From a virus (lineage: Duplodnaviria > Caudoviricetes): DNA of 38,373 nucleotides. Below are positions 369-37,456 of the stretch, piece by piece. Each line of letters starts with the position of its first letter. Positions within the stretch are counted from its first letter, which is position 1. The stretch lies in the IMG/VR virus record IMGVR_UViG_3300025647_000098, positions 1-38,373 of that record, one strand, 5' to 3'. The notes beneath the pieces were generated by a model. That model was not told the DNA's origin. It saw nothing but the letters and a program-made list of their open reading frames with translations, and did not search any database. The translations under genes and the position numbers were made by a program.

Positions 369-397
369 ATTATAGTCTAGGAAGAGGTGGTTGTCAA
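369..397 (-). promoter_or_regulatory. Perfect consensus sigma70 (early) promoter
   Basis: Minus strand TTGACA (397-392), 17 bp, TATAAT (374-369), upstream of the ATG at 331. Confidence 0.9.
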
Positions 398-2622
398 GCG
401 GCAATTCGCTTGACAAACCGAGAGAGTAGAACGCGGGACACAGCTTTCTTTTCCGAAAACTTGATGAATTCCGATGCCATCTTTTTCTTGGTCATATCGG
501 ACTTGATGTTAAGATTTCCAGTCGAAACATCAAACGTCTTCTGGTTGATGATATAGTATTCATCGTAACCAGAGGTAGTTGCACTGAAGAACCCGTTTGT
601 TTTCCAATCAGCCGAAGCTTTCTTGTAAGCTTCACCAGACTGACCGTTGACACGGCTGTAAGATTGATTGAAGCCATACGAGGTGATGTAGAAGCCAATC
701 AGATTGCAGCCAGTCCGGTCCTTGAGAACACGGAGAAGCAAACCAGTCATAGCCTTATCAGAGTAAGGGTCCCGATGATAATACGAGTTCTTAATCTCAG
801 ACCGAATCTCATAAGTCTTCTTGGTGATATCATCCTGAAGAATATACTTGCGCTTCTTCCAAGACGAATGCAAACCGTGAACCATGTGAATTGGATCAGA
901 ATCACCGTCAGTCAGGAAGATTGTGTTAACAATCTGAACCCGAGACTTAGCCTTGAACCGATTGACAATCATGTCAGCTACACCAATACACTCGTTAAGC
1001 GGAGTGGACTGGAGACTGTCACACCGAAGATGCCCATTACAAGCCATCACATACAGATGGAACATTGCGTCATTGAATTCTGCAACATTCATCCGCGATG
1101 AAAGCAAGTTACGAGCCACGAAATTGTCAAAGTACAGTTCATTCTGGTTCTGAGTAAACGAAGCGCCGTTGATACGACCCTCATCAACATCAAAGCCAGT
1201 GGTACTACGGAATGAGTAGACTTCAAACGGAATCTGAACCTGCTTACAGAACATGGTCAGCGAAAGAAGCTGCTTTACAGTCTTCTTAAGATGAATGTCC
1301 ATGGAGCCAGACCAGTCAATGAACATGACAAAGCCGTGGTTCTTACCAGAAGCAACAGTGGTGATACGACGGAACAGGTCATCATTATACTTGTATGAAT
1401 GAAGCTTGTTTGTGTCAATCACACCAGTTTTGGAGATGCTAGTGCGGCTGTACTCATCAGCCGATTTCCGCATCTCAAACTCCTTCACCATGAAAGAGAT
1501 TGAAGCTTTTTCATTAGCCTTGAACTTCTGGAGTTCCTCACGAACAGCTTTGAGCCAATCCTGGTTCCAGAAGCCAGCAATACATTTGCGCTGGTCAGCA
1601 AGAACAATCTTGTAATCATTTACAACCTGTTCATACTTGACAGGGCGAGGGATCTTGACGTAAACATATTCCTCGTCCGACTTGATGACAAGGTCTTCCT
1701 GATTTTTCTGCCAAGCCTTTTCAGTTTCAGACTCGGGAATGTCATCATCAGACTTTGCACCGACGTTTATCGGATCATCAGAGTCGCGCTTGTCATCGCC
1801 GTCACCAGCTTCGGTGTCGTCCGAGTCAGACTCACCATCGTCCTCTTCCTCATCATCAGAGTCGTCATCGCCGCGACCAGAGGTATAGTTTTCTTCCTCA
1901 TCATCATCGCCGAAATCTTCCTCATCAGACTCGTCGGAAAAGTCATAGTCGTCCTCGTCGGACATTCCACCCTTAGCACGAATATCGTCCGAGTCAGTTT
2001 CAGGCTCGTCCTGTTCCTGCTTAGACTTAGACCAACCGAAGATTTCCTCGGTGAGTGCAAGCACCTCATCAAAAGTCTCAGCCGCTTCAACCTTAGCGAC
2101 CATTGCCTTTTCTTCGGCCGAGAACTTGATACCAGACATTGCACCGCCCTTGAAGTAGATATTCAAGCGGTCAATGAAAGCCATAGAGTTAACGTCCTTG
2201 GACTTGGTACCAAAGAAGTCGCGTTCAATGAGTTCGGCGTAGCCCTTGACATAGTTGCGGCGAGAGCCAGGGAAGCGCCGCTTCTGGCGCTTGTCAATGC
2301 GGGCGTCTTCAATGACGTTCAGAAAGCCCTTGACTGCACCCATAGCACGATTGGAAGCCGCACCAGTGACTCGCTTTGCAATGTCAGACAATGCGTCAAG
2401 CCAGCCGTCAGAGGGTGTGTCAAGAGCATGACCAACCTCGTGAACAACCAGCATATCATACAGGTCATTGGACATTTCGCGCCAGATAGGGAGAATCAGA
2501 ACACGCTTAACCACATCAAACATAGCAGTTTGTGCGGCGGCCGAGTGCTGTACCGTAATGTTTTCCGTAGCCAGCAACTTGGCTAGCTGGGACTTAGCAT
2601 TGTGATTGTGTACTATTTCCAT
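394..2622 (-). CDS. CobT-like protein: zincin metallopeptidase domain, acidic linker and vWA domain
   Basis: HEVGH (HExxH) followed by NVIEDARI; long D/E-rich linker; MIDAS motif DWSGS and later LTDG. Confidence 0.8.
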   Translation of the reverse strand: MEIVHNHNAKSQLAKLLATENITVQHSAAAQTAMFDVVKRVLILPIWREMSNDLYDMLVVHEVGHALDTPSDGWLDALSDIAKRVTGAASNRAMGAVKGFLNVIEDARIDKRQKRRFPGSRRNYVKGYAELIERDFFGTKSKDVNSMAFIDRLNIYFKGGAMSGIKFSAEEKAMVAKVEAAETFDEVLALTEEIFGWSKSKQEQDEPETDSDDIRAKGGMSDEDDYDFSDESDEEDFGDDDEEENYTSGRGDDDSDDEEEDDGESDSDDTEAGDGDDKRDSDDPINVGAKSDDDIPESETEKAWQKNQEDLVIKSDEEYVYVKIPRPVKYEQVVNDYKIVLADQRKCIAGFWNQDWLKAVREELQKFKANEKASISFMVKEFEMRKSADEYSRTSISKTGVIDTNKLHSYKYNDDLFRRITTVASGKNHGFVMFIDWSGSMDIHLKKTVKQLLSLTMFCKQVQIPFEVYSFRSTTGFDVDEGRINGASFTQNQNELYFDNFVARNLLSSRMNVAEFNDAMFHLYVMACNGHLRCDSLQSTPLNECIGVADMIVNRFKAKSRVQIVNTIFLTDGDSDPIHMVHGLHSSWKKRKYILQDDITKKTYEIRSEIKNSYYHRDPYSDKAMTGLLLRVLKDRTGCNLIGFYITSYGFNQSYSRVNGQSGEAYKKASADWKTNGFFSATTSGYDEYYIINQKTFDVSTGNLNIKSDMTKKKMASEFIKFSEKKAVSRVLLSRFVKRIAA

Positions 2623-2917: not shown

Positions 2918-3871
2918 CTAAGTCTTTGATATCTTTCGCAGAACCATCCCATAATTGTTGACCTTAGGGAAACTCTTCAGATCAACTCCTGGTTTCAATC
3001 TCAGCTTATTATCCTCTGGTCCCAAACCAAGCTGTCTTCTCAACGGATGGTTGAGATTCTGAAAAGGCTCATAGTTCACATAATGATGCCAGCGTCCATA
3101 TTTCCAGACGATTCGAGCCACATCTGGATGCATATCCACTAGCATCTGAGACTTATTTATTGTACCTGTTGCGTTCAACTGACCATCACGCCACTTGCTC
3201 TTGTCAAGATCACCCTCAGCGTGATAAAACTCCGCAGTGTTACCACCCTTGACAGTTTGAGTTGCAGCTTTGCCTTGCAGAAAGTTATTGAACTGAATCG
3301 TGCAATCACCATCTTTCAATACACGAAGGCAAATGTCAGTGTCCTCATTGTAACGACCACGCCATCTATGCTTGCAATCATTAGAGATTAGCAGTGTGGA
3401 ATAGATACGAGTATTCAGCACGAAAGGATAGTAATGCTGATTAGGTGCAATGAAGAACCGATACTGTAGACCAGATATGGGTACATTCTCAAATCTATCA
3501 ACAAAGTCTTCACATGCTTTGAACATTGCACCAGACTCCACACGAATACGCTGATTGAGATGTAGTCTATAGAAGTCTTGAATGTTATCATCACACACCC
3601 AATGCTTCTCAGCACCTATAGAGATTGAGTGATCCCAACACCAGTTTCTCGCACGACCAGGACCGTCACCGTGGTTAGAAAAAGGAGCAACAAGAAGGAT
3701 AACATAATCGCGAATGCTAAAGTTATCCAGCGCATTTTCATAGTTCTCTTCATCTTGTGGTTCAATAGCAATGTAATGTGGTATCTTCATACGCGCGAGA
3801 GAGCGCGAGGTATACATCGTTTCATGTCTACCCTTAGAGATAATGTATACTGGATGTGTTGGATTAGTCAT
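2918..3871 (-). CDS. TET-associated (TAGT/GREB1-like) GT-A glycosyltransferase, putative DNA base glycosylation
   Basis: PVYIISKGR N-terminus, GPGRARNW, HWVCDDNI (acidic metal-binding motif), RIYS, RYNEDTD and T.KGGNT motifs typical of this family. Confidence 0.7.
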   Translation of the reverse strand: MTNPTHPVYIISKGRHETMYTSRSLARMKIPHYIAIEPQDEENYENALDNFSIRDYVILLVAPFSNHGDGPGRARNWCWDHSISIGAEKHWVCDDNIQDFYRLHLNQRIRVESGAMFKACEDFVDRFENVPISGLQYRFFIAPNQHYYPFVLNTRIYSTLLISNDCKHRWRGRYNEDTDICLRVLKDGDCTIQFNNFLQGKAATQTVKGGNTAEFYHAEGDLDKSKWRDGQLNATGTINKSQMLVDMHPDVARIVWKYGRWHHYVNYEPFQNLNHPLRRQLGLGPEDNKLRLKPGVDLKSFPKVNNYGMVLRKISKT

Positions 3872-4551
3872 TCTCCATTCCTACAATAAACAATGTTTAC
3901 CCATGCACCCTTTGTGTCTTCTCTGGCCTGAACATAACCAAAATGCTTGCGAAGAAGATCAAGAGTGTCATTATACTTCTCATGTGTCTTTAGATCATTC
4001 AAGTGAGCATGATGAAACTCCATGATGAACTCACGAATATTGTACCAGTTATTGATTGCGGGCAAACACTCTAGTTCACCACCTTCAATGTCCATCTTGA
4101 CTACTGTAGGCTTAACAGTCTCAAAGACATAGTTGATATTGGTACAATTGACTGTAACTGTATCTCTGCCTCGTTTTGCAACAAGAGAGTGTGCGCCTTT
4201 GTTCTTCTTTAGATTGATAGAAAAGTCGCGTGTCTTATCATTGTTACCGATAACAGCTTCGTTGTGTAGTACATACTTGCTTGTGTCTGGAATATTCATT
4301 GCCACATTTTTACATGCGAGATTATAATTGTCAATATCAGGTTCGTATCCATGAACAAGTGCTGCACCTTTCTTCAATGCAAATGTTGTAAACATTCCGA
4401 TATTCAAACCAAAGTCTACTACAACATCATCAGGCTTGATCTGTAGCTTATTGTACTCACCAGAAAATACCTCATGAACTACAAATTCATCTGAGGTACC
4501 TTCTCTTACTTCTGCTTGAATGTCTCTATAAGTTATTGTCTTGACTGTCAT
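3868..4551 (-). CDS. FkbM-family SAM-dependent methyltransferase
   Basis: VVVDFGLNIGMFT (motif I), GYEPDIDNY, KMDIEGGE. Confidence 0.8.
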   Translation of the reverse strand: MTVKTITYRDIQAEVREGTSDEFVVHEVFSGEYNKLQIKPDDVVVDFGLNIGMFTTFALKKGAALVHGYEPDIDNYNLACKNVAMNIPDTSKYVLHNEAVIGNNDKTRDFSINLKKNKGAHSLVAKRGRDTVTVNCTNINYVFETVKPTVVKMDIEGGELECLPAINNWYNIREFIMEFHHAHLNDLKTHEKYNDTLDLLRKHFGYVQAREDTKGAWVNIVYCRNGE

Positions 4552-4898
4552 TCTTCAAACCACCTCTTTAAGGAGTTCTCATCCTTATCAAGATGAGGAT
4601 ACCACATGCTTTTTGTTTTCTTTGAAATCGTCTGCTCATCATCAACAGACTTATACTTAGCCACAAACTCATCAAAATCTTGCTGATTGCGGAAATGCAA
4701 ATAGATTGTCTTGAATGGAGGATTGTCTTTCTGAATAAACTCAGGCATTCCTACCCAGAGTTTTTCGCGCTCGTTTTCATTATCATCTTCCATACCAAGG
4801 AATTCTGCAAGAGATGTTTCTTCTGGTTCTACTGGTACAGTAGTTTGTCCAAGGAAGTTATCATATGGTGCAGATTCTTCAACGGGTGTCTTTGTCAT
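4548..4898 (-). CDS. Small conserved protein with WxGMPEFxQ motif (probable glycosyltransferase-associated accessory)
   Basis: WVGMPEFIQKD...IYLHFRNQQDFDEF...KSMWYP. Overlaps the gp46 stop and the FkbM start, suggesting translational coupling. Confidence 0.55.
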   Translation of the reverse strand: MTKTPVEESAPYDNFLGQTTVPVEPEETSLAEFLGMEDDNENEREKLWVGMPEFIQKDNPPFKTIYLHFRNQQDFDEFVAKYKSVDDEQTISKKTKSMWYPHLDKDENSLKRWFEE

Positions 4899-6610
4899 TA
4901 TACCATCCTACTAAAATTCTTTTGCTTCTCAAAGCGGTATACTTTATCAAACTTGTCTAGGAGTTGATCTTGTTTGTGCGAGATTATATATGTATTTGTA
5001 TCGTCTGTCAATGTCTGAATGATCTTGAGGAACTCATCGGTACCGTTTGCGTCCAGACTTCCATCCAAAATCTCGTCCAGAATAAGCAAGTTGGTATTCA
5101 CACTGTTCTTCATCTTTGCAATAGAACGCCAAGTGAAGAGAAGTGCCAGATCTATTCTGGTTTTCTCACCTTCTGAAAAGTTGGAATAAGAAAACTCATC
5201 ACGAAATCTGGACTTGATGACCTCATTGAAGTTCTCATCTATATTGAAGTTGACAAAGAAACCCATCTGAGCAAGGTACTTGTTGACTAGCTTGTTGATG
5301 ATTGGAATATACTGCTTGATGATCTTCGTCTTGATACCGCCATCCTTGAGTAGAGACATGGCCGTTTCAATCATGGTACGTTCGTTTAGACGGAATTGCA
5401 AAGAACCTTCCATGCGATAGATTTCTTCTTCCGCAGACTTCAAGTCTTTCTCACTGTCCAATACAAGCTTGTCAGAGTTGCGAATCTTGTCCATGTTGTC
5501 TTCAATGTCATTCATCATGGATACGATGTGCATCATTGTCTGCTTGCTGGACTTGATTTCAGCAGAGATAGAATGTGAACGCTTAGACTTATCTTCAAGA
5601 TTATTGATCTTTGTAAGCAGATCATCCATATGCTTCTTTAGCAGATCAGCATACTTCTGTGCTTCGGCAGCTTGTTCGTGAAGCTTGATCTTACGTCTTT
5701 CTCTAAAATGTTCATCAATGTGCTGCTTACAGGTTGGACATTCATCATGCTCTGTAAGGAACTCAATCTCTTTGTCACAGCGATGGATATTTGTTTCCTG
5801 AGTTGTAAGAGATACGATAGAGTTGGAATAATCGTTTCTAACATCTGCAAGATTGACAACATCATTCATGAGGTCTTCTTTTTCGTCCAGAAGACCTTTT
5901 ACTTTATCTAACAAATCTTTCTTTTGCTGTGTAAAGTCTGCAAGCTGCTTTTCAAGTTCAAGCAGTCTGTCATCATTGTTCTGCTTTAGATTGGCCAGTG
6001 TACGCTCAACATAGTCTCTCTTGTCCTGTGCAGACTTGAGAAGCATACGATTTTTCTCTACACTTTCCTTATTCTCTTGCCAACGCTGCTTTACTAAAAG
6101 ATTCATCACTGAGAAGATTTGGATGTCCAGCAAGTCTTCAATAATAGTGCGACGATCAGCAGATGTTAGCTGCATGAACGGTGTAAAAGATGCTGAACCA
6201 AGAATGACAATCTGACAGAAGGACTTCATGTTCATCTTGAGAATGAACTTTTCAAGATATTCCTGATAGTCTCTGGAAGCTGAGTCCTGATTCAGCAATG
6301 AACCATCAACCCATATCTCAAAGATATTAGGACGAATGCCACGCACAATCTTGTAGTCTTTGCCATAGGCCTTGAATACAATCTCAACCTTACAGTCTTT
6401 GTTGTTTACACTGTTTACAAGTAGAGGCTTGTTGATCTTGCGGAATGGTTTGCCAAACAAAACAAAAGTAAGCGCGTCAAGTATGGTTGATTTACCATGC
6501 CCGTTCGCGCCTACTATCAAGTTTGTCTTTGAGGAATTCAGTTCAATCTCAGTCCACGCATTACCAGTAGAGAGAAGGTTCTTCCATCTAATCAGTTCAA
6601 ATGTAATCAT
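4898..6610 (-). CDS. gp46: Recombination endonuclease subunit (Rad50/SbcC-like)
   Basis: Walker A GANGHGKST, coiled coil with CPTC zinc hook, FSEGEK signature, LLILDE Walker B. Confidence 0.95.
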   Translation of the reverse strand: MITFELIRWKNLLSTGNAWTEIELNSSKTNLIVGANGHGKSTILDALTFVLFGKPFRKINKPLLVNSVNNKDCKVEIVFKAYGKDYKIVRGIRPNIFEIWVDGSLLNQDSASRDYQEYLEKFILKMNMKSFCQIVILGSASFTPFMQLTSADRRTIIEDLLDIQIFSVMNLLVKQRWQENKESVEKNRMLLKSAQDKRDYVERTLANLKQNNDDRLLELEKQLADFTQQKKDLLDKVKGLLDEKEDLMNDVVNLADVRNDYSNSIVSLTTQETNIHRCDKEIEFLTEHDECPTCKQHIDEHFRERRKIKLHEQAAEAQKYADLLKKHMDDLLTKINNLEDKSKRSHSISAEIKSSKQTMMHIVSMMNDIEDNMDKIRNSDKLVLDSEKDLKSAEEEIYRMEGSLQFRLNERTMIETAMSLLKDGGIKTKIIKQYIPIINKLVNKYLAQMGFFVNFNIDENFNEVIKSRFRDEFSYSNFSEGEKTRIDLALLFTWRSIAKMKNSVNTNLLILDEILDGSLDANGTDEFLKIIQTLTDDTNTYIISHKQDQLLDKFDKVYRFEKQKNFSRMV

Positions 6611-6981
6611 AGTGCGTTGTGATACTCACGCTGTTCCTTGATGTATTCTTCAGCTTCTTCTTTGGTATGGAAATAAGAAGTATAGTGTCCGCGATGTTCA
6701 CCATCAAATTCATCTTCCCACACTTCATCGTAGTGATCACCGATCTTCATACAGTAGCGGTCACAATACTCTTCTTCATTCCAAATGTTGTGCCCTTCGA
6801 CAACAGCATTGAATGTACCTACAATTTCGACTTCCATCAAGTCAAAATCGACACTATCCTTATCATAGCGATACCATTCAATACCATCAGCATCAACCAT
6901 CTTCAGCTTCTTCTGTACGCCTGTGAGACGGTTGAATATCTTATTCACACGCCAGAATTTGTTACCAATGTTATACTTCAT
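6607..6981 (-). CDS. Hypothetical protein
   Basis: 124-aa ORF with ATGA overlaps to gp47 and gp46. Confidence 0.7.
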   Translation of the reverse strand: MKYNIGNKFWRVNKIFNRLTGVQKKLKMVDADGIEWYRYDKDSVDFDLMEVEIVGTFNAVVEGHNIWNEEEYCDRYCMKIGDHYDEVWEDEFDGEHRGHYTSYFHTKEEAEEYIKEQREYHNAL

Positions 6982-8057
6982 TCTATAGTCTCCAACGACA
7001 ATGCTTCGGTATATACCTCACGCATGTAATGTTTCATCTTATCATTTTCTACAGGCAAAGTCAACCCACTTATAAAATTATCTAGGATCGTCAATGTGTC
7101 TTGTGCTTCGTCTACCAGTTCATCTGCATTATTGTCAGTGAACGAATTGATATCTTCCACAATAGAAATGTCTGCTGCTTGTGCTTGATACAGTTTGTCA
7201 AGTAAAACATCAAACGAATATGGATTAGTCTTGTTCACACAAACAATCTTAACATATGTGTCCTTGAACTTGCTATAGTCAGTTGCGCTAATCTTCTCAA
7301 GGATATCAGGATGCTTCACATCATCATAAGCGACCATATGAAATATGCGATAAGGATTACGATGAAAAACTGTATCGCGGGATTCAGTATCAAAGACAAC
7401 AAAGCCCCGAGGATCATTATAATCACTCCATATATGCTCACAAAAAGCGCCAATGTAATGAATATTATCCCTGCTGCTACGGTGATGATAATGACCAGTA
7501 AATACGCTATCAAACTTGCCAAGAAGCTTATGATTCCATCCATGGTCTGATAACAATCCTTTCTGCATCTCAAAGCCATCAAGTTCAAGATGACCACAAC
7601 AAATAAGTGACTTGGTATTCTCTACTGCTTCATAACAAGACTTCTCGTTAGCCTTTGTGATCCAAGGCAACAGAAAGAACGCACAACCATCAATCTCAAT
7701 CTCTGTGGGTGTTGAGTATATCTTGATGTTGTTATAACGATTACCAACAAACTCTTCAAGAGCATTCACTGTATATGTATCTTTGAAATACTCATCATGA
7801 TTGCCTGCGATGATGTACATCTCACACAGTTCATTCAGCGGCTCAAGAAAGTCAGTTCTCAATCTGGAATGGGTAAGGACGTTAATATACTTCCTGCGGT
7901 CAACAAGATCGCCAAGATGAATGATATGCTTAATGTCATTCGCCTTGATAAATGGAATGAGAAATTCATCTACGCTCCTCTTGAAATAGTCAAGGAAAAC
8001 TGGGGAGTCATTTCTAACTCCCCAGTGAGTATCGGTAATGAGTAGAACTTTAGTCAC
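6978..8057 (-). CDS. gp47: Recombination endonuclease subunit (Mre11/SbcD-like)
   Basis: DTHWG, GDLVD, GNHD and GHYH metallophosphoesterase motifs. Confidence 0.95.
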   Translation of the reverse strand: MTKVLLITDTHWGVRNDSPVFLDYFKRSVDEFLIPFIKANDIKHIIHLGDLVDRRKYINVLTHSRLRTDFLEPLNELCEMYIIAGNHDEYFKDTYTVNALEEFVGNRYNNIKIYSTPTEIEIDGCAFFLLPWITKANEKSCYEAVENTKSLICCGHLELDGFEMQKGLLSDHGWNHKLLGKFDSVFTGHYHHRSSRDNIHYIGAFCEHIWSDYNDPRGFVVFDTESRDTVFHRNPYRIFHMVAYDDVKHPDILEKISATDYSKFKDTYVKIVCVNKTNPYSFDVLLDKLYQAQAADISIVEDINSFTDNNADELVDEAQDTLTILDNFISGLTLPVENDKMKHYMREVYTEALSLETIE

Positions 8058-11506: not shown

Positions 11507-12025
11507 CTACAATCTTTCAATATCAAATATATCATATCTGAAGGTAACATCTGCGGTAGGTGTAGTATCTGCGGAGTTCATTGTGCTGAATTGTATTCCT
11601 CCAAGAGAAACAGGAAACACATTTCTGAACTTTATTCTGATGTTTGATATGTTAGCGTTGGTATTTATAGTCAACAAACCATCTTGATATGGAGAAGCAT
11701 CTGCATTTATGCTTTTGATGTATTGAGAGTAGCTTTCTGGTCTTGTTAGAGAAACAATCCATTTGAATGTTTCTTCCCATACTTTCAAATCTTCGTCTAC
11801 CAAAAATGTGATAGTGAAAGCTTCAAAAGACATTTTTGTTGGATGTCTATATGCACTTGCAAAAGGATTAGGTACTTCAATCTCGTTTGATGTTACACCT
11901 GGAAGATTGACATTTTGACAGAAGTATCTTGCAAAAGGTAAATTAGGAATAACAAAAGTATACTTCGTTGTTTGAAGAAAGTTTGTGTTCTCTGGATTTA
12001 TGTTTAGAAAAGATCGTTGTGTCAT
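11507..12025 (-). CDS. gp3: Tail completion / tube terminator protein
   Basis: NFLQ...YFCQ.VNLPG...FLVDEDL..W motif (gp19-like fold); position after gp23. Confidence 0.85.
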   Translation of the reverse strand: MTQRSFLNINPENTNFLQTTKYTFVIPNLPFARYFCQNVNLPGVTSNEIEVPNPFASAYRHPTKMSFEAFTITFLVDEDLKVWEETFKWIVSLTRPESYSQYIKSINADASPYQDGLLTINTNANISNIRIKFRNVFPVSLGGIQFSTMNSADTTPTADVTFRYDIFDIERL

Positions 12026-19251: not shown

Positions 19252-19259
19252 TATTTATA
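19252..19259 (-). promoter_or_regulatory. Late promoter TATAAATA overlapping the ART stop codon
   Basis: Exact consensus. Confidence 0.8.
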
Positions 19260-20184
19260 AATCTTCTATCAATACACAATGGAAAAGATTTATCGTTACC
19301 GAATCTGCTTCTGGATTTAGTATACCATAATCAATTTGATGTGGACCAGAAACAATTTTGACTTTTGAACCTCTCGGCAACATTGTTTCCAATTCGCCTC
19401 TATTAGAAGAAAGTGGATCAACATAGATAGATTTTTGACCCTTCGAAATCTCGATTTGAAGCACTACGGGTTTTTCATTGCCCCAGTCCGAATCGGTAAA
19501 TCCATTAATGGCTGTATTGAAATTTATAGAAGTAGACAAATAACCTCTGAAGATATATTCACTGCCAGGTTTTATTTTTTCAGCTTTATATCTTTCACTC
19601 AGACCTGTGTATACAGTATAATCAAATGGAGCTTGTGTTTCTTCAAAAGCTGAATCTAGTGCTTCTACCATACTTTCTATAAAAGAAGCGTATTCTGGCT
19701 CTGTATCTGGATCATGACCTTTGTAAAGAAATCTATTTATAGGATCAAAAGCATCACTAGTGTATTCTTCGATTGCTCGTATTTCTTCGTCATCATACAT
19801 TCCAGGCTTATAGAACTTGTATAGTTCTTTATTCAAAGCTATTGTTTCTTTGTATTTCTTGTTAAGAATCTTAATATCTTCTGCTTCTCTTTTTGACAAA
19901 ACTTTTGAATGAGTATCAACTTGAGTCATTAACTCTTTGGATTTATTTGGATTACTTGTGCTTCTAGCTTTGTCATATATACTTTGAATTTCTTCTATAT
20001 GTTTGTATGGCACAAGTCTATCGTTATCTACTGTATATGCTATTCTGCCTTTAGAGTCAGCATATCTGCCAAAACCCATATAAGTCAGCCCAAGTCTTCT
20101 TGCTTCTTTGGATGCGTTTGTTTTTGGTTCTGACTTGACCTCAGCAGCTAAAGATTCTGATATAAAGTCTTCAAATTTCATCAT
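19255..20184 (-). CDS. Alt/VIP2-like ADP-ribosyltransferase, probably virion-packaged
   Basis: AI.EYT...INRFL, VYTG, GYLSTS, VLQIEI.KG and E-x-E (ELETMLPRG); N-terminus MMKFEDFISE. Confidence 0.8.
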   Translation of the reverse strand: MMKFEDFISESLAAEVKSEPKTNASKEARRLGLTYMGFGRYADSKGRIAYTVDNDRLVPYKHIEEIQSIYDKARSTSNPNKSKELMTQVDTHSKVLSKREAEDIKILNKKYKETIALNKELYKFYKPGMYDDEEIRAIEEYTSDAFDPINRFLYKGHDPDTEPEYASFIESMVEALDSAFEETQAPFDYTVYTGLSERYKAEKIKPGSEYIFRGYLSTSINFNTAINGFTDSDWGNEKPVVLQIEISKGQKSIYVDPLSSNRGELETMLPRGSKVKIVSGPHQIDYGILNPEADSVTINLFHCVLIEDL

Positions 20185-29998: not shown

Positions 29999-31171
29999 TC
30001 ACTTAAACCAGGGACCTACCATCCAAGTTACAACCGTAAATCTTTCGCCCTCTTCAACATCTTCAACACCGTGAAGCAGAAAAGAAGGAAATACCAAAAC
30101 AGTACCTTTTCTTTGTGGTGGGTATAACTTCTCATGTCCAATTTGCAAGAAGAATTTACCTCCTTTGAAATCATCATTTAAGAAAGCGAGAACAGTCAGT
30201 TTTCTACATTCCTCAAAATTTTTTGGATCATTACTTAAAAATGTATCAATATGACCTTTATATCTACCGCCGCCGGTCGGATACTTTAAAAATTCCGACT
30301 GATTTGCTCTCTCAATATCAAATTTCCACCTTTGAGCGTTCGCGTCTAAACCCGCCGCAGCAAGCCTAGCTCCAATGCCTTTATAGACAGGAAGAACTAC
30401 TCTATTAACATTTCTTATTGTTTTATCAATAGTTCCAGTAGTTCCTCCGCCAACACCAGCCTCTTCATCTGGCGCAGTATTATACAACTTAATCAACATA
30501 TCACAATCTTTTTCAGTGAGTATATCGCTATATAACCACATAGTAAGATCATCATTTGCCGGCAGATTTAGTTTGCCGCGTTTGTCATATATCCATTCTT
30601 TGTGTGGTCCATTTGCATCTACATAATGTAGAAATACTTGTGCTTGCCATTTACCTTCTTTATATTCGTCACGCCAATGATACATTTCACAGCCTCGATA
30701 AAGCATTGCATCGCCAACTTTCATTTTGAGTTCGCTGACATCATCTGCATATACAGTATTGTCATGTTCATCAACTCTTGATGTATTAGTTGGATTATCT
30801 GAAGGTTTACCAATATAAATTGGCCAAACATCACCCTCAAAATCTAAAGTCAAAGTAGCACTTACTTCACAAGAAGGGCGATCACGATGGATTTTGAGAA
30901 CTTCACCTGGTTCATACCATCTTGCATAAGCATAAGTTGGTAGTAATTTTAAACCTGAAGCCTGTTCAAAATGTGGTAGCAAATCAACAAGCAACTTATC
31001 AAAGGTAACACTATCTCTAATAGATTTGCTTTTTGGGCATTGTGGATCAAACCAACCTCGATTGTTAATTTCATTCTTCAATGCGAGAGTAAGTTCTTCA
31101 CAGTTCTTCTTGTCAAGAAACCCTTCGAGATGCACATAACGATGTGTTTCATACTGTTCAGCAGTATTCAT
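29999..31171 (-). CDS. Tandem two-domain 2OG-Fe(II) oxygenase
   Basis: Domain 1: HRD...HWR. Domain 2: HID...RKLT...FPSFLLHGV...R (PKHD/prolyl-hydroxylase-like). Confidence 0.85.
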   Translation of the reverse strand: MNTAEQYETHRYVHLEGFLDKKNCEELTLALKNEINNRGWFDPQCPKSKSIRDSVTFDKLLVDLLPHFEQASGLKLLPTYAYARWYEPGEVLKIHRDRPSCEVSATLTLDFEGDVWPIYIGKPSDNPTNTSRVDEHDNTVYADDVSELKMKVGDAMLYRGCEMYHWRDEYKEGKWQAQVFLHYVDANGPHKEWIYDKRGKLNLPANDDLTMWLYSDILTEKDCDMLIKLYNTAPDEEAGVGGGTTGTIDKTIRNVNRVVLPVYKGIGARLAAAGLDANAQRWKFDIERANQSEFLKYPTGGGRYKGHIDTFLSNDPKNFEECRKLTVLAFLNDDFKGGKFFLQIGHEKLYPPQRKGTVLVFPSFLLHGVEDVEEGERFTVVTWMVGPWFK

Positions 31172-35806: not shown

Positions 35807-37456
35807 TTATACTATTGCTATTCTTGCGTTTGCTTGTATTGTTAATGTTCTGTTTGCTGCAACTGTGATTGGACCAGCAGCAAGCGCGTTATTACCTGAG
35901 TATATAGTTGTGTTCGTAGTTAGCGTATCTGTATGAACACGGAAGATGTCACCAAGTCCAGTTGCGATTCCTGTATCTCCATTATTGCCTTGGAAATATC
36001 CGCCGCCACTAGCACCCTGAATACCTTGTGTGCCAATAGCGCCCTGAGTTCCTGTTGCACCCTGAGTTCCTGTTGTACCTTGACGACCTTGAATACCCTG
36101 TGCACCAGTAGTACCTTGTGATCCAGTTGATCCAGTAGCACCTTGACTTCCTGTAGCGCCTGTTGTTCCTTGAGTGCCTGTAGTACCTTGTGATCCAGTT
36201 GATCCAGTTGCACCTTGAGTACCAGTAGCACCTTGTGTACCAGTAGCGCCTTGTGATCCAGTAGCACCAGTTGTACCCTGACTTCCTGTAGCACCAGTTG
36301 ATCCAGTGGTACCTTGACTTCCTGTAGCGCCAGTCGTACCTTGTGATCCAGTTGATCCAGTAGCACCAGTTGTACCCTGACTTCCTGTTGTACCTTGAGT
36401 ACCTGTAGTACCTTGACTTCCTGTAGCACCAGTTGATCCAGTGGTACCTTGAGAACCAGTTGCACCAGTTGCACCAGTTGATCCAGTGGTACCTTGAGTA
36501 CCTGTAGTACCTTGACTTCCTGTAGCACCAGTTGATCCAGTGGTACCTTGAGAACCAGTTGCACCAGTTGATCCAGTGGTACCTTGAGTACCTGTAGTAC
36601 CCTGAGAACCAGTGGTACCTTGAGAACCTGTTGTACCTTGACTTCCTGTAGCACCAGTTGATCCAGTAGCACCAGTTGTTCCTTGTGATCCAGTAGCGCC
36701 AGTCGTACCTTGAGATCCAGTTGATCCAGTAGCACCAGTTGTACCCTGACTTCCTGTAGCACCAGTCGTACCTTGAGATCCAGTTGATCCAGTAGCACCA
36801 GTTGTACCCTGACTTCCTGTAGCACCAGTTGATCCAGTAGCACCAGTTGTACCCTGACTTCCTGTAGCACCAGTTGATCCAGTGGTACCTTGAGTACCTG
36901 TAGTACCCTGACTTCCTGTAGCACCAGTTGATCCAGTGGTACCTTGAGTACCTGTAGTACCCTGACTTCCTGTAGCACCAGTTGATCCAGTGGTACCTTG
37001 AGTACCTGTAGTACCCTGAGAACCAGTGGTACCTTGAGAACCTGTTGTACCTTGACTTCCTGTAGCACCTTGAATGTTTGTTGGACTACCATTGATGAAG
37101 AATGCTGTTGCATTTACACCACCAACAACATCAACCTTATAATTAGCATCTGATCTACCTACAGCAACATTACCGCCAAATTCTGCTAGTGTGACTAGAC
37201 CACTTGCATCAACTTCTAATGAAGGAATACCAGAAACGTCATTGACGCTAAAAATTGTGCCTGTTAGATCATTGGTAATAGAGAATAGCTGGCCAGCAGA
37301 ACCCTCAAATGAAAGCGTTCCGTTAGATGTTGGATACACGCGAAGAGTGATATCGGTGTTGACAGAAGTGTTACCACCCGAGAACTGAATCTTAGGATCG
37401 TCTGTTGATGAACCGATATTCGGTGTGATAACTATGTTTTTGTAAGTATTAGCCAT
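35807..37456 (-). CDS. Collagen-like fibre protein
   Basis: About 118 consecutive Gly-X-Y triplets flanked by globular N- and C-terminal domains. Confidence 0.9.
36008..37069 (-). repeat. 9-bp-periodic collagen repeat array ([15 protein letters not shown])
   Basis: 1062 bp = 118 triplets, with nested higher-order duplications. Confidence 0.9.

Follow-up and report, generated by a model that had tools for sequence, protein, structure and literature searches.

The DNA analysed here, the window, is a stretch of 38,373 nucleotides from IMG/VR virus record IMGVR_UViG_3300025647_000098. It comes from a T4-like phage, with matches to gp46, gp47, gp55, UvsW, gp23, portal and terminase, and nine sequencing runs sharing at least half of its words, four of which may be its source, carry the label freshwater metagenome. 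On the minus strand, three genes follow gp46 in the transcription order adaptor, FkbM and TAGT. They encode a small protein with a WxGMPEF motif, here called the adaptor, a methyltransferase dependent on S-adenosylmethionine (SAM), and a glycosyltransferase (GT). The features of the unit are as follows.

2918..3871, minus strand: TAGT (PF20691) GT-A glycosyltransferase, 317 amino acids, with DD 94-95, NEDTD 175-179, GGNT 209-212 and RWHH 260-263 intact
3868..4551, minus strand: FkbM-family SAM-dependent methyltransferase, 227 amino acids, an optional insert, with DxGxNIG 46-52, KMDIEG 152-157 and EFHHAHL 178-184
4548..4898, minus strand: WxGMPEF adaptor, 116 amino acids, with an acidic leader (1-46) containing SLAEFL (29-34, candidate gp45-clamp peptide), then a beta-alpha-beta domain
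4898..6610, minus strand: gp46 (SbcC-like), the upstream neighbour, which contains the promoter and lies outside the unit
4983..5011, minus strand: sigma-70-type promoter motif TTGACA-17-TATAAT, 12/12, within the 3′ end of gp46 and 85 nt before the adaptor ATG

The three open reading frames (ORFs) with overlapping stop and start codons, reported in a first-pass annotation of this DNA, are real and intact. The gp46/adaptor junction is TAATG, a 1-nt overlap, and an ATGA overlap follows twice. The same trio is present, at 91/96/96 % identity, in a complete close relative, G006 (167,363 bp; CheckV 100 %; nucleotide identity about 92 % in the region of the unit), and the codon changes between the two trios are mostly synonymous (synonymous to non-synonymous 21:10, 35:10, and 67:14). 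Because the trio is kept in G006 with this excess, it is not a chance arrangement. The window's own genome is represented by the window and the overlapping sequence G008, which is 100 % identical over 4803 bp.

A site matching at least 11 of the 12 promoter positions was observed upstream of the unit in 22 of 45 distinct homologous loci, compared to 2 of 45 control stretches taken 700 nt further upstream. This conservation may be due in part to the gp46 coding sequence, although homologous promoter-like sites are also found in intergenic positions. The closest T4 late-promoter motif, TATAAATA, lies 6.8 kb away at 11669. With its own conserved sigma-70 site and such a distant late motif, the unit therefore looks like an early transcript of its own rather than an appendix of gp46, and the 4983-5011 site is likely to be its early, independent promoter.

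The trio had been placed directly after gp47/gp46 and described as coupled to gp46. It does follow gp46, but a 124-amino-acid ORF of no family (6607-6981, minus strand) separates gp47 from gp46, and the coupling is positional only. A functional link to gp46 was rejected based on the promoter and on other phages, where the adaptor and TAGT genes lie far from gp46; in relatives, deformylase, deaminase, or homing genes often stand between gp46 and the adaptor gene.

The adaptor, its glycosyltransferase and the inserts between them

The 317-amino-acid protein matches PF20691 (E 2e-41; 142.7 bits against a curated cut-off of 27.5, residues 7-210) and phrog_842 (E 1.6e-43). Its AlphaFold model has a predicted local distance difference test (pLDDT) value of 88.9 and structural matches that are GT-A only, cell-wall GTs among them; the best has Z 15.2 and a root mean square deviation of 4.1 over 202 residues, and structure comparison of the model found no close solved relative. 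D94, D177, G209, G210, and N211 are invariant across 53 TAGT homologues. The protein is basic (isoelectric point 8.8). TAGT is 37-76 % identical across phages with unrelated virions, and the enzyme of phage Aeh1, 47 % identical to that of the window, belongs to the same clade. The TAGT-like glycosyltransferase call was borne out by the family match, modelled fold, and intact motifs; the protein is a member of the GT-A-fold TAGT family and a predicted enzyme.

The adaptor (WVGMPEF at residues 48-54) has no match in Pfam, PHROGs or NCBIfam, and its domain makes up 2657 clusters at 50 % identity. Its gene neighbourhood was surveyed in two ways. Among the best 80 of 536 TAGT relatives in IMG/VR, several of them near-identical copies, the adaptor gene is upstream of TAGT in 79, and the 80th contig begins at the GT. 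The second survey started from the adaptor DNA motif alone; of about 1300 stretches it covered 120, of which 80 had flanks, and the domain was in frame in 78 of these. Here TAGT is the next gene in 53 loci, comes after one insert in 12, is fused in six, lies just upstream in six, and is absent from one; it is therefore adjacent or fused in 77 of 78. In the cultured phages Aeh1, 65, PTm1, Kuja, 1.076.O, and POP12, all seven TAGTs have the adaptor as an N-terminal fusion (E 1e-12 to 2e-7). Longer proteins with the adaptor domain (74) include 44 TAGT fusions and seven ParB_N fusions, and in P0443 and P0431 the adaptor is fused to the FkbM clade of the window (E 2.7e-18 and 2.5e-10). Judged by these arrangements, adaptor and TAGT are a fixed two-part core and FkbM is a swappable insert. 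The adaptor role suggested for the small protein gains support from its fusions to TAGT, ParB, and FkbM, and is a predicted one.

Several fusions of about 500 amino acids have, as read by eye, an apparent two tandem adaptor copies before TAGT, which suggests that the adaptor dimerises. Modelled alone, it gave low confidence (pLDDT 67.9; predicted template modelling score 0.41). Neither the viral nor the PDB library contained a Foldseek match for this model at E 0.001, and the ESM Atlas matches of the adaptor are unnamed viral clusters only. The TAGT family and its gene neighbourhoods were reportedly defined by Iyer et al. in 2013, who may already note the ParB and methylase neighbours; a literature search found no paper on the adaptor domain or on FkbM beside TAGT.

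The 227-amino-acid protein matches PF05050, FkbM (E 2e-15; 57.7 bits against a cut-off of 22.7), and TIGR01444 (E 3e-15; 56.8 against 37.7). Its SAM-binding residues D46-G48-N50-I51-G52 are conserved and the three motifs are kept in its clade; no solved relative was found by sequence. The FkbM O-methyltransferase family call holds on both profiles, with O-methylation itself predicted. FkbM occupies the slot between adaptor and TAGT in nine of the 80 first-survey loci, and these nine fall on some five distinct branches in the TAGT tree. Other inserts in that survey are an unrelated class I methyltransferase (three), homing-endonuclease-like genes (three), and a second TAGT (two within the slot, four just after it). 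A 354-amino-acid protein fills the slot in eight near-identical copies; this protein (L026:8944-10008) has no Pfam, PHROG or NCBIfam match and is GT-B-like by eye only. The 12 inserts of the motif survey are class I methyltransferase (seven), FkbM, second TAGT, a weak GT-B match, the 354-amino-acid protein, and HNH (one each). The class I methyltransferase insert occurs in ParB-type small phages too.

In all 15 viral loci of the FkbM clade, TAGT lies no more than about 1 kb away, and TAGT and FkbM are joined in one partial frame. These loci, with the fusions, argue for the functional tie between the two enzymes that had been assumed. Among 50,697 phage records, the closest relatives of this FkbM in cultured phages score 82-107 bits with the clade profile, compared to 18-20 for other FkbMs, and are in ParB-TET/JBP-FkbM clusters before terminase in phages HTVC112P and MED4-184. 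In HTVC112P, gp18 (L262:4082-4990) is annotated 'DnaJ/SNF2' but matches TET/JBP (E 1e-29); in MED4-184, CPAG_00035 (L263:4199-4984) is annotated 'queuine tRNA-ribosyltransferase' but matches TET/JBP at E 3e-6, below the Pfam cut-off. A related FkbM in a third record is beside a DNA polymerase and a C5-methyltransferase. The ParB-TET/JBP clusters appear to tie this FkbM lineage to DNA base modification, in which direct methylation of a base hydroxyl is also possible. HTVC112P and MED4-184 are cultured candidates for an O-methylated hydroxymethyl-pyrimidine.

Clamp links and the search for priming enzymes

Tails of gp43 of the [ST]LE[DS]FF type bind the gp45 clamp, and the beta-clamp-binding consensus is QL[SD]LF. 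The gp43 tails of these phages are of the former type, and a clamp-peptide matrix was built from ten of them, in place of a first regular expression (13 of 43 leaders) that was rejected as post hoc. Independent adaptor leaders from T4-type phages (44) have a mean matrix score of 5.37, compared to -0.22 when shuffled (maximum 1.49 of 300), and 27 of them reach at least 3.5 where 5.2 are expected; 54 other leaders show no excess (-2.31 against -2.78 shuffled). The relaxed beta-clamp pattern Qx[SDTN][LMF][FLI] is present in 12 of the 37 non-T4-type leaders from which it was derived and in 11 of an independent 74, against shuffled means of 0.31 and 0.52, and in none of the T4-type leaders (0/21 and 0/25). 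ParB-like adaptor fusions account for 12 of 78, with ParB_N confirmed in four of seven scanned, and the second TAGT able to fill the slot has a SLESFF, SLEGFF or SLENFF tail in three of four checked. The predicted clamp link matches the type of phage replication, being gp45-type in T4-like phages and either beta-clamp-type or ParB in small phages.

Folded with the phage's own gp45, leader residues 5-46 scored 0.47, with 0.00 for the best control, runs that agree in 84 % or more of contacts, and a partner pLDDT of 47 or more. Among solved pairs, 116 of 157 come up to the mark for such folds, as do 2 of 215 mismatched pairs; at 0.60 or below are only 18 of the 157 solved pairs, and both mismatches. 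A complex like this one has presumably been solved already, therefore the score may come from structures already known to the folding model, and the fold lends weak support to clamp binding. The T4 alpha-glucosyltransferase co-purifies with gp45 (PMC13216743; this and the other papers cited were available in part, and statements about them refer to those parts). Because three clamp links are found together with the conserved early promoter, DNA is the likeliest target on present sequence comparisons, as had been proposed, with the window's own peptide a weak example. Two further lines favour DNA: the place of the FkbM lineage in ParB-TET/JBP clusters, and a TAGT that is basic and shared by phages whose virions are unrelated.

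A number of observations weigh against a clamp-tethered enzyme that modifies DNA. The window's own SLAEFL is equalled by 80 of 1012 background windows (shuffle p 0.135), only four of 43 first-survey leaders are above the 99th percentile, and strict QL[SD]LF is found in 0 of 37 and 1 of 74 non-T4-type leaders, the relaxed pattern owing its form to the first of these sets. No clamp peptide was found in 120 FkbM tails. The HTVC112P and MED4-184 genomes have no PF20691 gene; sugar methylation is therefore not required of the related FkbM there. Genome G006 has many surface-glycan enzymes and a SAM lyase. In Petrov 2010 it is suggested that T4 relatives in which genes 42 and 56 are missing probably have no major modification of cytosine. 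None of the characterised TAGTs acts on unprimed DNA, the T6 TAGT adding sugar to sugar (PMC13216743), and O-GlcNAcylation of a protein is reported for the TAGT relative GREB1 (PMC7968844). The literature search found no nucleoside analysis of a carrier phage, with Aeh1, 65, POP12, PTm1, and Kuja included.

The acceptor had been supposed to be a hydroxymethylated pyrimidine. This is not supported, as no hydroxymethyl-pyrimidine source was found in G006, Aeh1 or 65 at the sensitivity of the searches. There is no PF00303, PF12851 or PF00145 match in G006, with the controls T4 gp42, L187 TET, and G015 detected. Likewise, G012 (complete, with terminal repeats), G013, and G014 have no PF00303 or PF12851 match; Vibrio phage 1.076.O has no PF00303; and PF00145, the C5-cytosine methyltransferase family, is absent from G006, Aeh1, 65, and 1.076.O, with the G015 control detected. 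No TET/JBP was found in Aeh1 or 65 (PF12851 search of five cultured genomes, with the L187 control run separately). T4 gp42 has no match in Aeh1, 65, POP12 or Kuja, and Aeh1 and 65 are listed without genes 42 and 56 (Table 4 of PMC2993671). A weak PF00303 match in Aeh1 (E 8e-5) falls within gp47 and was rejected as spurious. Alpha- and beta-glucosyltransferases (PF11440/PF09198) did not turn up among 132 scanned G006 proteins, in which no dedicated search for them was made.

Two custom profiles, one made of three phage TETs and the other of four homologues of thymidylate synthase, found nothing in G006, G001, G002, G008 with the window, or the 80 first-survey loci. Among 79 flanked motif loci they found L187 only. 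They also gave two weak matches, at L080 and L181 (E 0.018 and 0.008). In L187:225-3982, TET/JBP, ADDT (amino acid:DNA transferase), a P-loop kinase, adaptor, and TAGT are in one run; its TAGT is of the window's clade (46 % identity), and it is the only surveyed locus with a known priming enzyme. In PTm1 (L096:11-2121), a divergent thymidylate-synthase homologue is found with a kinase-like and a phosphatase-like gene, a group that resembles hydroxycytosine-glycosylation clusters. G006 encodes ThyX, dUTPase, and a TIGR02466 oxygenase of no assigned role; this oxygenase (searched as PF13759) is absent from Aeh1, 65, 1.076.O, and POP12. Matches between divergent TETs are poor (E about 1e-3 to 5e-2), therefore a hidden or very divergent oxygenase could escape these searches, and many dioxygenases are missed by PF12851 (PMC13229309). 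The Pfam scan covered about 290 of 379 representatives of neighbour clusters without a G006 match, those nearest the adaptor, and the rest were covered by the two custom profiles only.

Comparison with known systems

The founding TAGT is the T2/T6 beta-glucosyl-hydroxymethylcytosine-alpha-glucosyltransferase (PMC13216743; PMC2993671), which shares its Pfam and PHROG family, GT-A fold, and DD and ED motifs with the window enzyme. In the T-even pathway the T4 alpha-GT binds gp45 (PMC13216743). In contrast, the T6 TAGT has no BLASTP match to the window TAGT at E 10, T4 and T6 are without the adaptor, and the window unit has a methyltransferase and, in its relatives, no gp42. Unlike the T-even phages, Aeh1 is listed with a TAGT only, without an alpha- or beta-GT partner (supplement of PMC13216743). 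The first-pass annotation had also pointed to the T4 alpha-glucosyltransferase gene beside gp47/gp55; this synteny argument is weak and was rejected, as that enzyme is an unrelated GT-B protein rather than GT-A (PMC13216743).

In the post-replicative 5mYOX (TET/JBP) clusters of phages (PMC8256090; bioRxiv 2023.12.21.572611; PMC13229309), GTs and O-methyltransferases share neighbourhoods, and ParB has an N-terminal domain, a linker, and a small C-terminal domain, with no DNA-binding domain; such ParB activators need the C-terminal dimerisation domain (PMC13229309). The cultured relatives of the window's FkbM and one TAGT of its clade sit in clusters of this kind. Unlike them, G006 shows no TET/JBP dioxygenase or C5-methyltransferase, and the adaptor is a free-standing domain accompanied by a clamp-type peptide. 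The adaptor has no match in the ParBs of HTVC112P and MED4-184. FkbM has 0 mentions in the available text of the Pyle preprint and PMC8256090, and supplements of the preprint and of PMC13229309 may list such clusters. As the priming enzymes of both the T-even and 5mYOX systems were tested for and not found, the unit is placed outside them, and it probably works like them.

Solitary TAGTs, without a primary transferase, have been reported without explanation in 288 of 753 phage genomes, those of Aeh1, PTm1, and Kuja among them (2026 survey, PMC13216743). Aeh1 is credited with a glucosyltransferase for an 'unknown base', citing Iyer 2013 (PMC8056088), which may be the same ORF. The solitary Aeh1 TAGT (NP_943971) is of the same clade as that of the window and likewise has no priming enzyme; unlike it, the window's is split into adaptor and enzyme, with FkbM inserted. 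No description of the adaptor domain or clamp peptides was found for solitary TAGTs in the available text of PMC13216743 and PMC8056088. The characterised phage DNA glycosyltransferases of the papers cited need a pre-made hydroxyl, on hydroxymethylcytosine, hydroxymethyluracil, 5-hydroxycytosine or an earlier sugar, and primed acceptors only are described in bioRxiv 2023.12.21.572611, PMC8256090, PMC13326640, and PMC13390438.

Several other genes were observed in the window and G006. Downstream of the unit, in the window and in most relatives, are a phrog_459 peptidase-like gene and a MoxR-type AAA ATPase (394-2622, minus strand), with a sigma-70-like site of their own (2646-2674). A 12-pair terminator-like hairpin (7999-8026) is within the 5′ end of gp47, beside a promoter-like site (8121-8093). 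An Alt-like ADP-ribosyltransferase (19255-20184, minus strand; 91 % identical in G006) is between portal and gp67, behind a late-promoter motif region. Near the tail-fibre genes are a 2-oxoglutarate-Fe(II) oxygenase (PF13640) and a collagen-repeat protein (29999-31171 and 35807-37456, both minus strand). G006 is without this oxygenase at the corresponding place and has a GT60-type N-acetylglucosamine transferase (L133:6797-8068). Hydroxyproline glycosylation of fibres is possible. A SAM lyase domain (PF23780; L135:6344-7177) is found in G006 behind a MKTFKQYL-type leader, with several SAM-dependent methyltransferases in the same phage.

Proposed mechanism and competing explanations

It is considered an even chance that the unit encodes a clamp-tethered adaptor-TAGT pair with an O-methyltransferase that acts on phage DNA, where the acceptor is probably something other than hydroxymethyl-pyrimidine. 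The early promoter would drive the unit, and the adaptor, likely as a dimer, would grip gp45 and dock TAGT and FkbM at newly made phage DNA. TAGT would then transfer to DNA a sugar derived from a nucleoside diphosphate donor, either host UDP-glucose or UDP-N-acetylglucosamine or a product of the phage's own GDP-sugar kit, and FkbM would likely O-methylate the added sugar. The product may hinder nucleases, and swapping of the insert may vary the decoration. The acceptor would be an unmodified position of the DNA, on the backbone or on a canonical base (exocyclic amine or oxygen), since no third gene constantly accompanies adaptor and TAGT in the unrelated phages that have them. A bolder form, in which a self-sufficient machine plugs TAGT and a swappable tailoring enzyme through the adaptor onto gp45, the host beta clamp or a ParB clamp and places a methylated sugar on canonical DNA, is tentative and doubtful.

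The main rival, thought unlikely, is that the complex glycosylates and methylates protein, either virion proteins or a replisome or host protein reached by way of the clamp. No priming base is then needed, which fits the missing hydroxymethylase and TET, and in 1.076.O the fused gene has the portal gene on one side and head-morphogenesis genes on the other. Mycobacteriophage virion glycosylation (Che8 gp108-110) likewise combines a phage glycosyltransferase with an O-methyltransferase; Che8 gp108, which has a role in it, joins GT2 and O-methyltransferase domains. The GREB1 report points the same way. However, the three Che8 GTs are GT2/GT25 rather than PF20691 and Che8 is without the adaptor, the window enzyme has no GT2/GT25 match, the unit has an early promoter and no late promoter near it, the adaptor family has clamp peptides and ParB fusions, and TAGT is conserved across phages whose virions are unrelated.

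A lower probability is given to a divergent, unrecognised enzyme that makes a hydroxylated or hydroxymethylated pyrimidine for TAGT to glycosylate. The TET/JBP gene two genes before the adaptor in L187, the PTm1 thymidylate-synthase homologue, the G006 TIGR02466 oxygenase, and the limited reach of TET profiles and PF12851 (PMC13229309) all favour it. Against this are the absence of PF00303 and PF12851 from four relatives despite working controls, the absence of PF00145 from G006 and three cultured phages, the single custom-profile find among 79 flanked loci with none in the 80 of the first survey, and the absence of PF13759 from four cultured carriers, with G006 having ThyX and dUTPase.

Lower again is the probability that DNA is the target and that a base or hydroxyl, instead of the sugar, is the direct substrate of FkbM, which would work in parallel to TAGT or compete with it. 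Two cultured phages without PF20691 have relatives of this FkbM next to ParB and TET/JBP, and the third record has one next to DNA polymerase and a C5-methyltransferase, which is consistent with this, but the window's clade is beside TAGT in every one of its loci, other inserts in the slot are glycosyltransferases, which fits sugar tailoring, and the GT search in HTVC112P and MED4-184 covered PF20691 only.

G006 has a glycan kit (L131:8294-19999, L132:707-3118, and L133:3407-6330) with GT2, GT10 fucosyltransferase, GDP-mannose dehydratase, GDP-fucose synthase, DegT aminotransferase, phosphomannomutase, GT4, and a sugar C-methyltransferase, and the window's own phage continues into this kit via G008 at 81-90 % identity. 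That the unit builds a host-surface glycan, in lipopolysaccharide or capsule conversion, with this GDP-fucose cluster is very improbable: such clusters are read as surface-polysaccharide modifiers (PMC7824862) and TAGT resembles cell-wall GTs, but the sugar genes are about 13-25 kb and more away and separate from the unit, the unit is alone in 47-kb phages without other annotated sugar genes, and its adaptor comes with clamp peptides or ParB.

Whichever target applies, a large clade of solitary TAGTs appears to depend on an unnamed adaptor, which heterologous screens would need to include, and cultured carriers with DNA amenable to analysis are now named. If a protein is the target, the unit points to phage protein glycosylation by a DNA-type enzyme. 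If clamp-tethered modification of DNA is correct, it would be a new DNA modification chemistry with a general clamp-tethering adaptor, and the self-sufficient form of the machine, if true, would yield a new nucleoside by a new route of hypermodification without a hydroxylated base.

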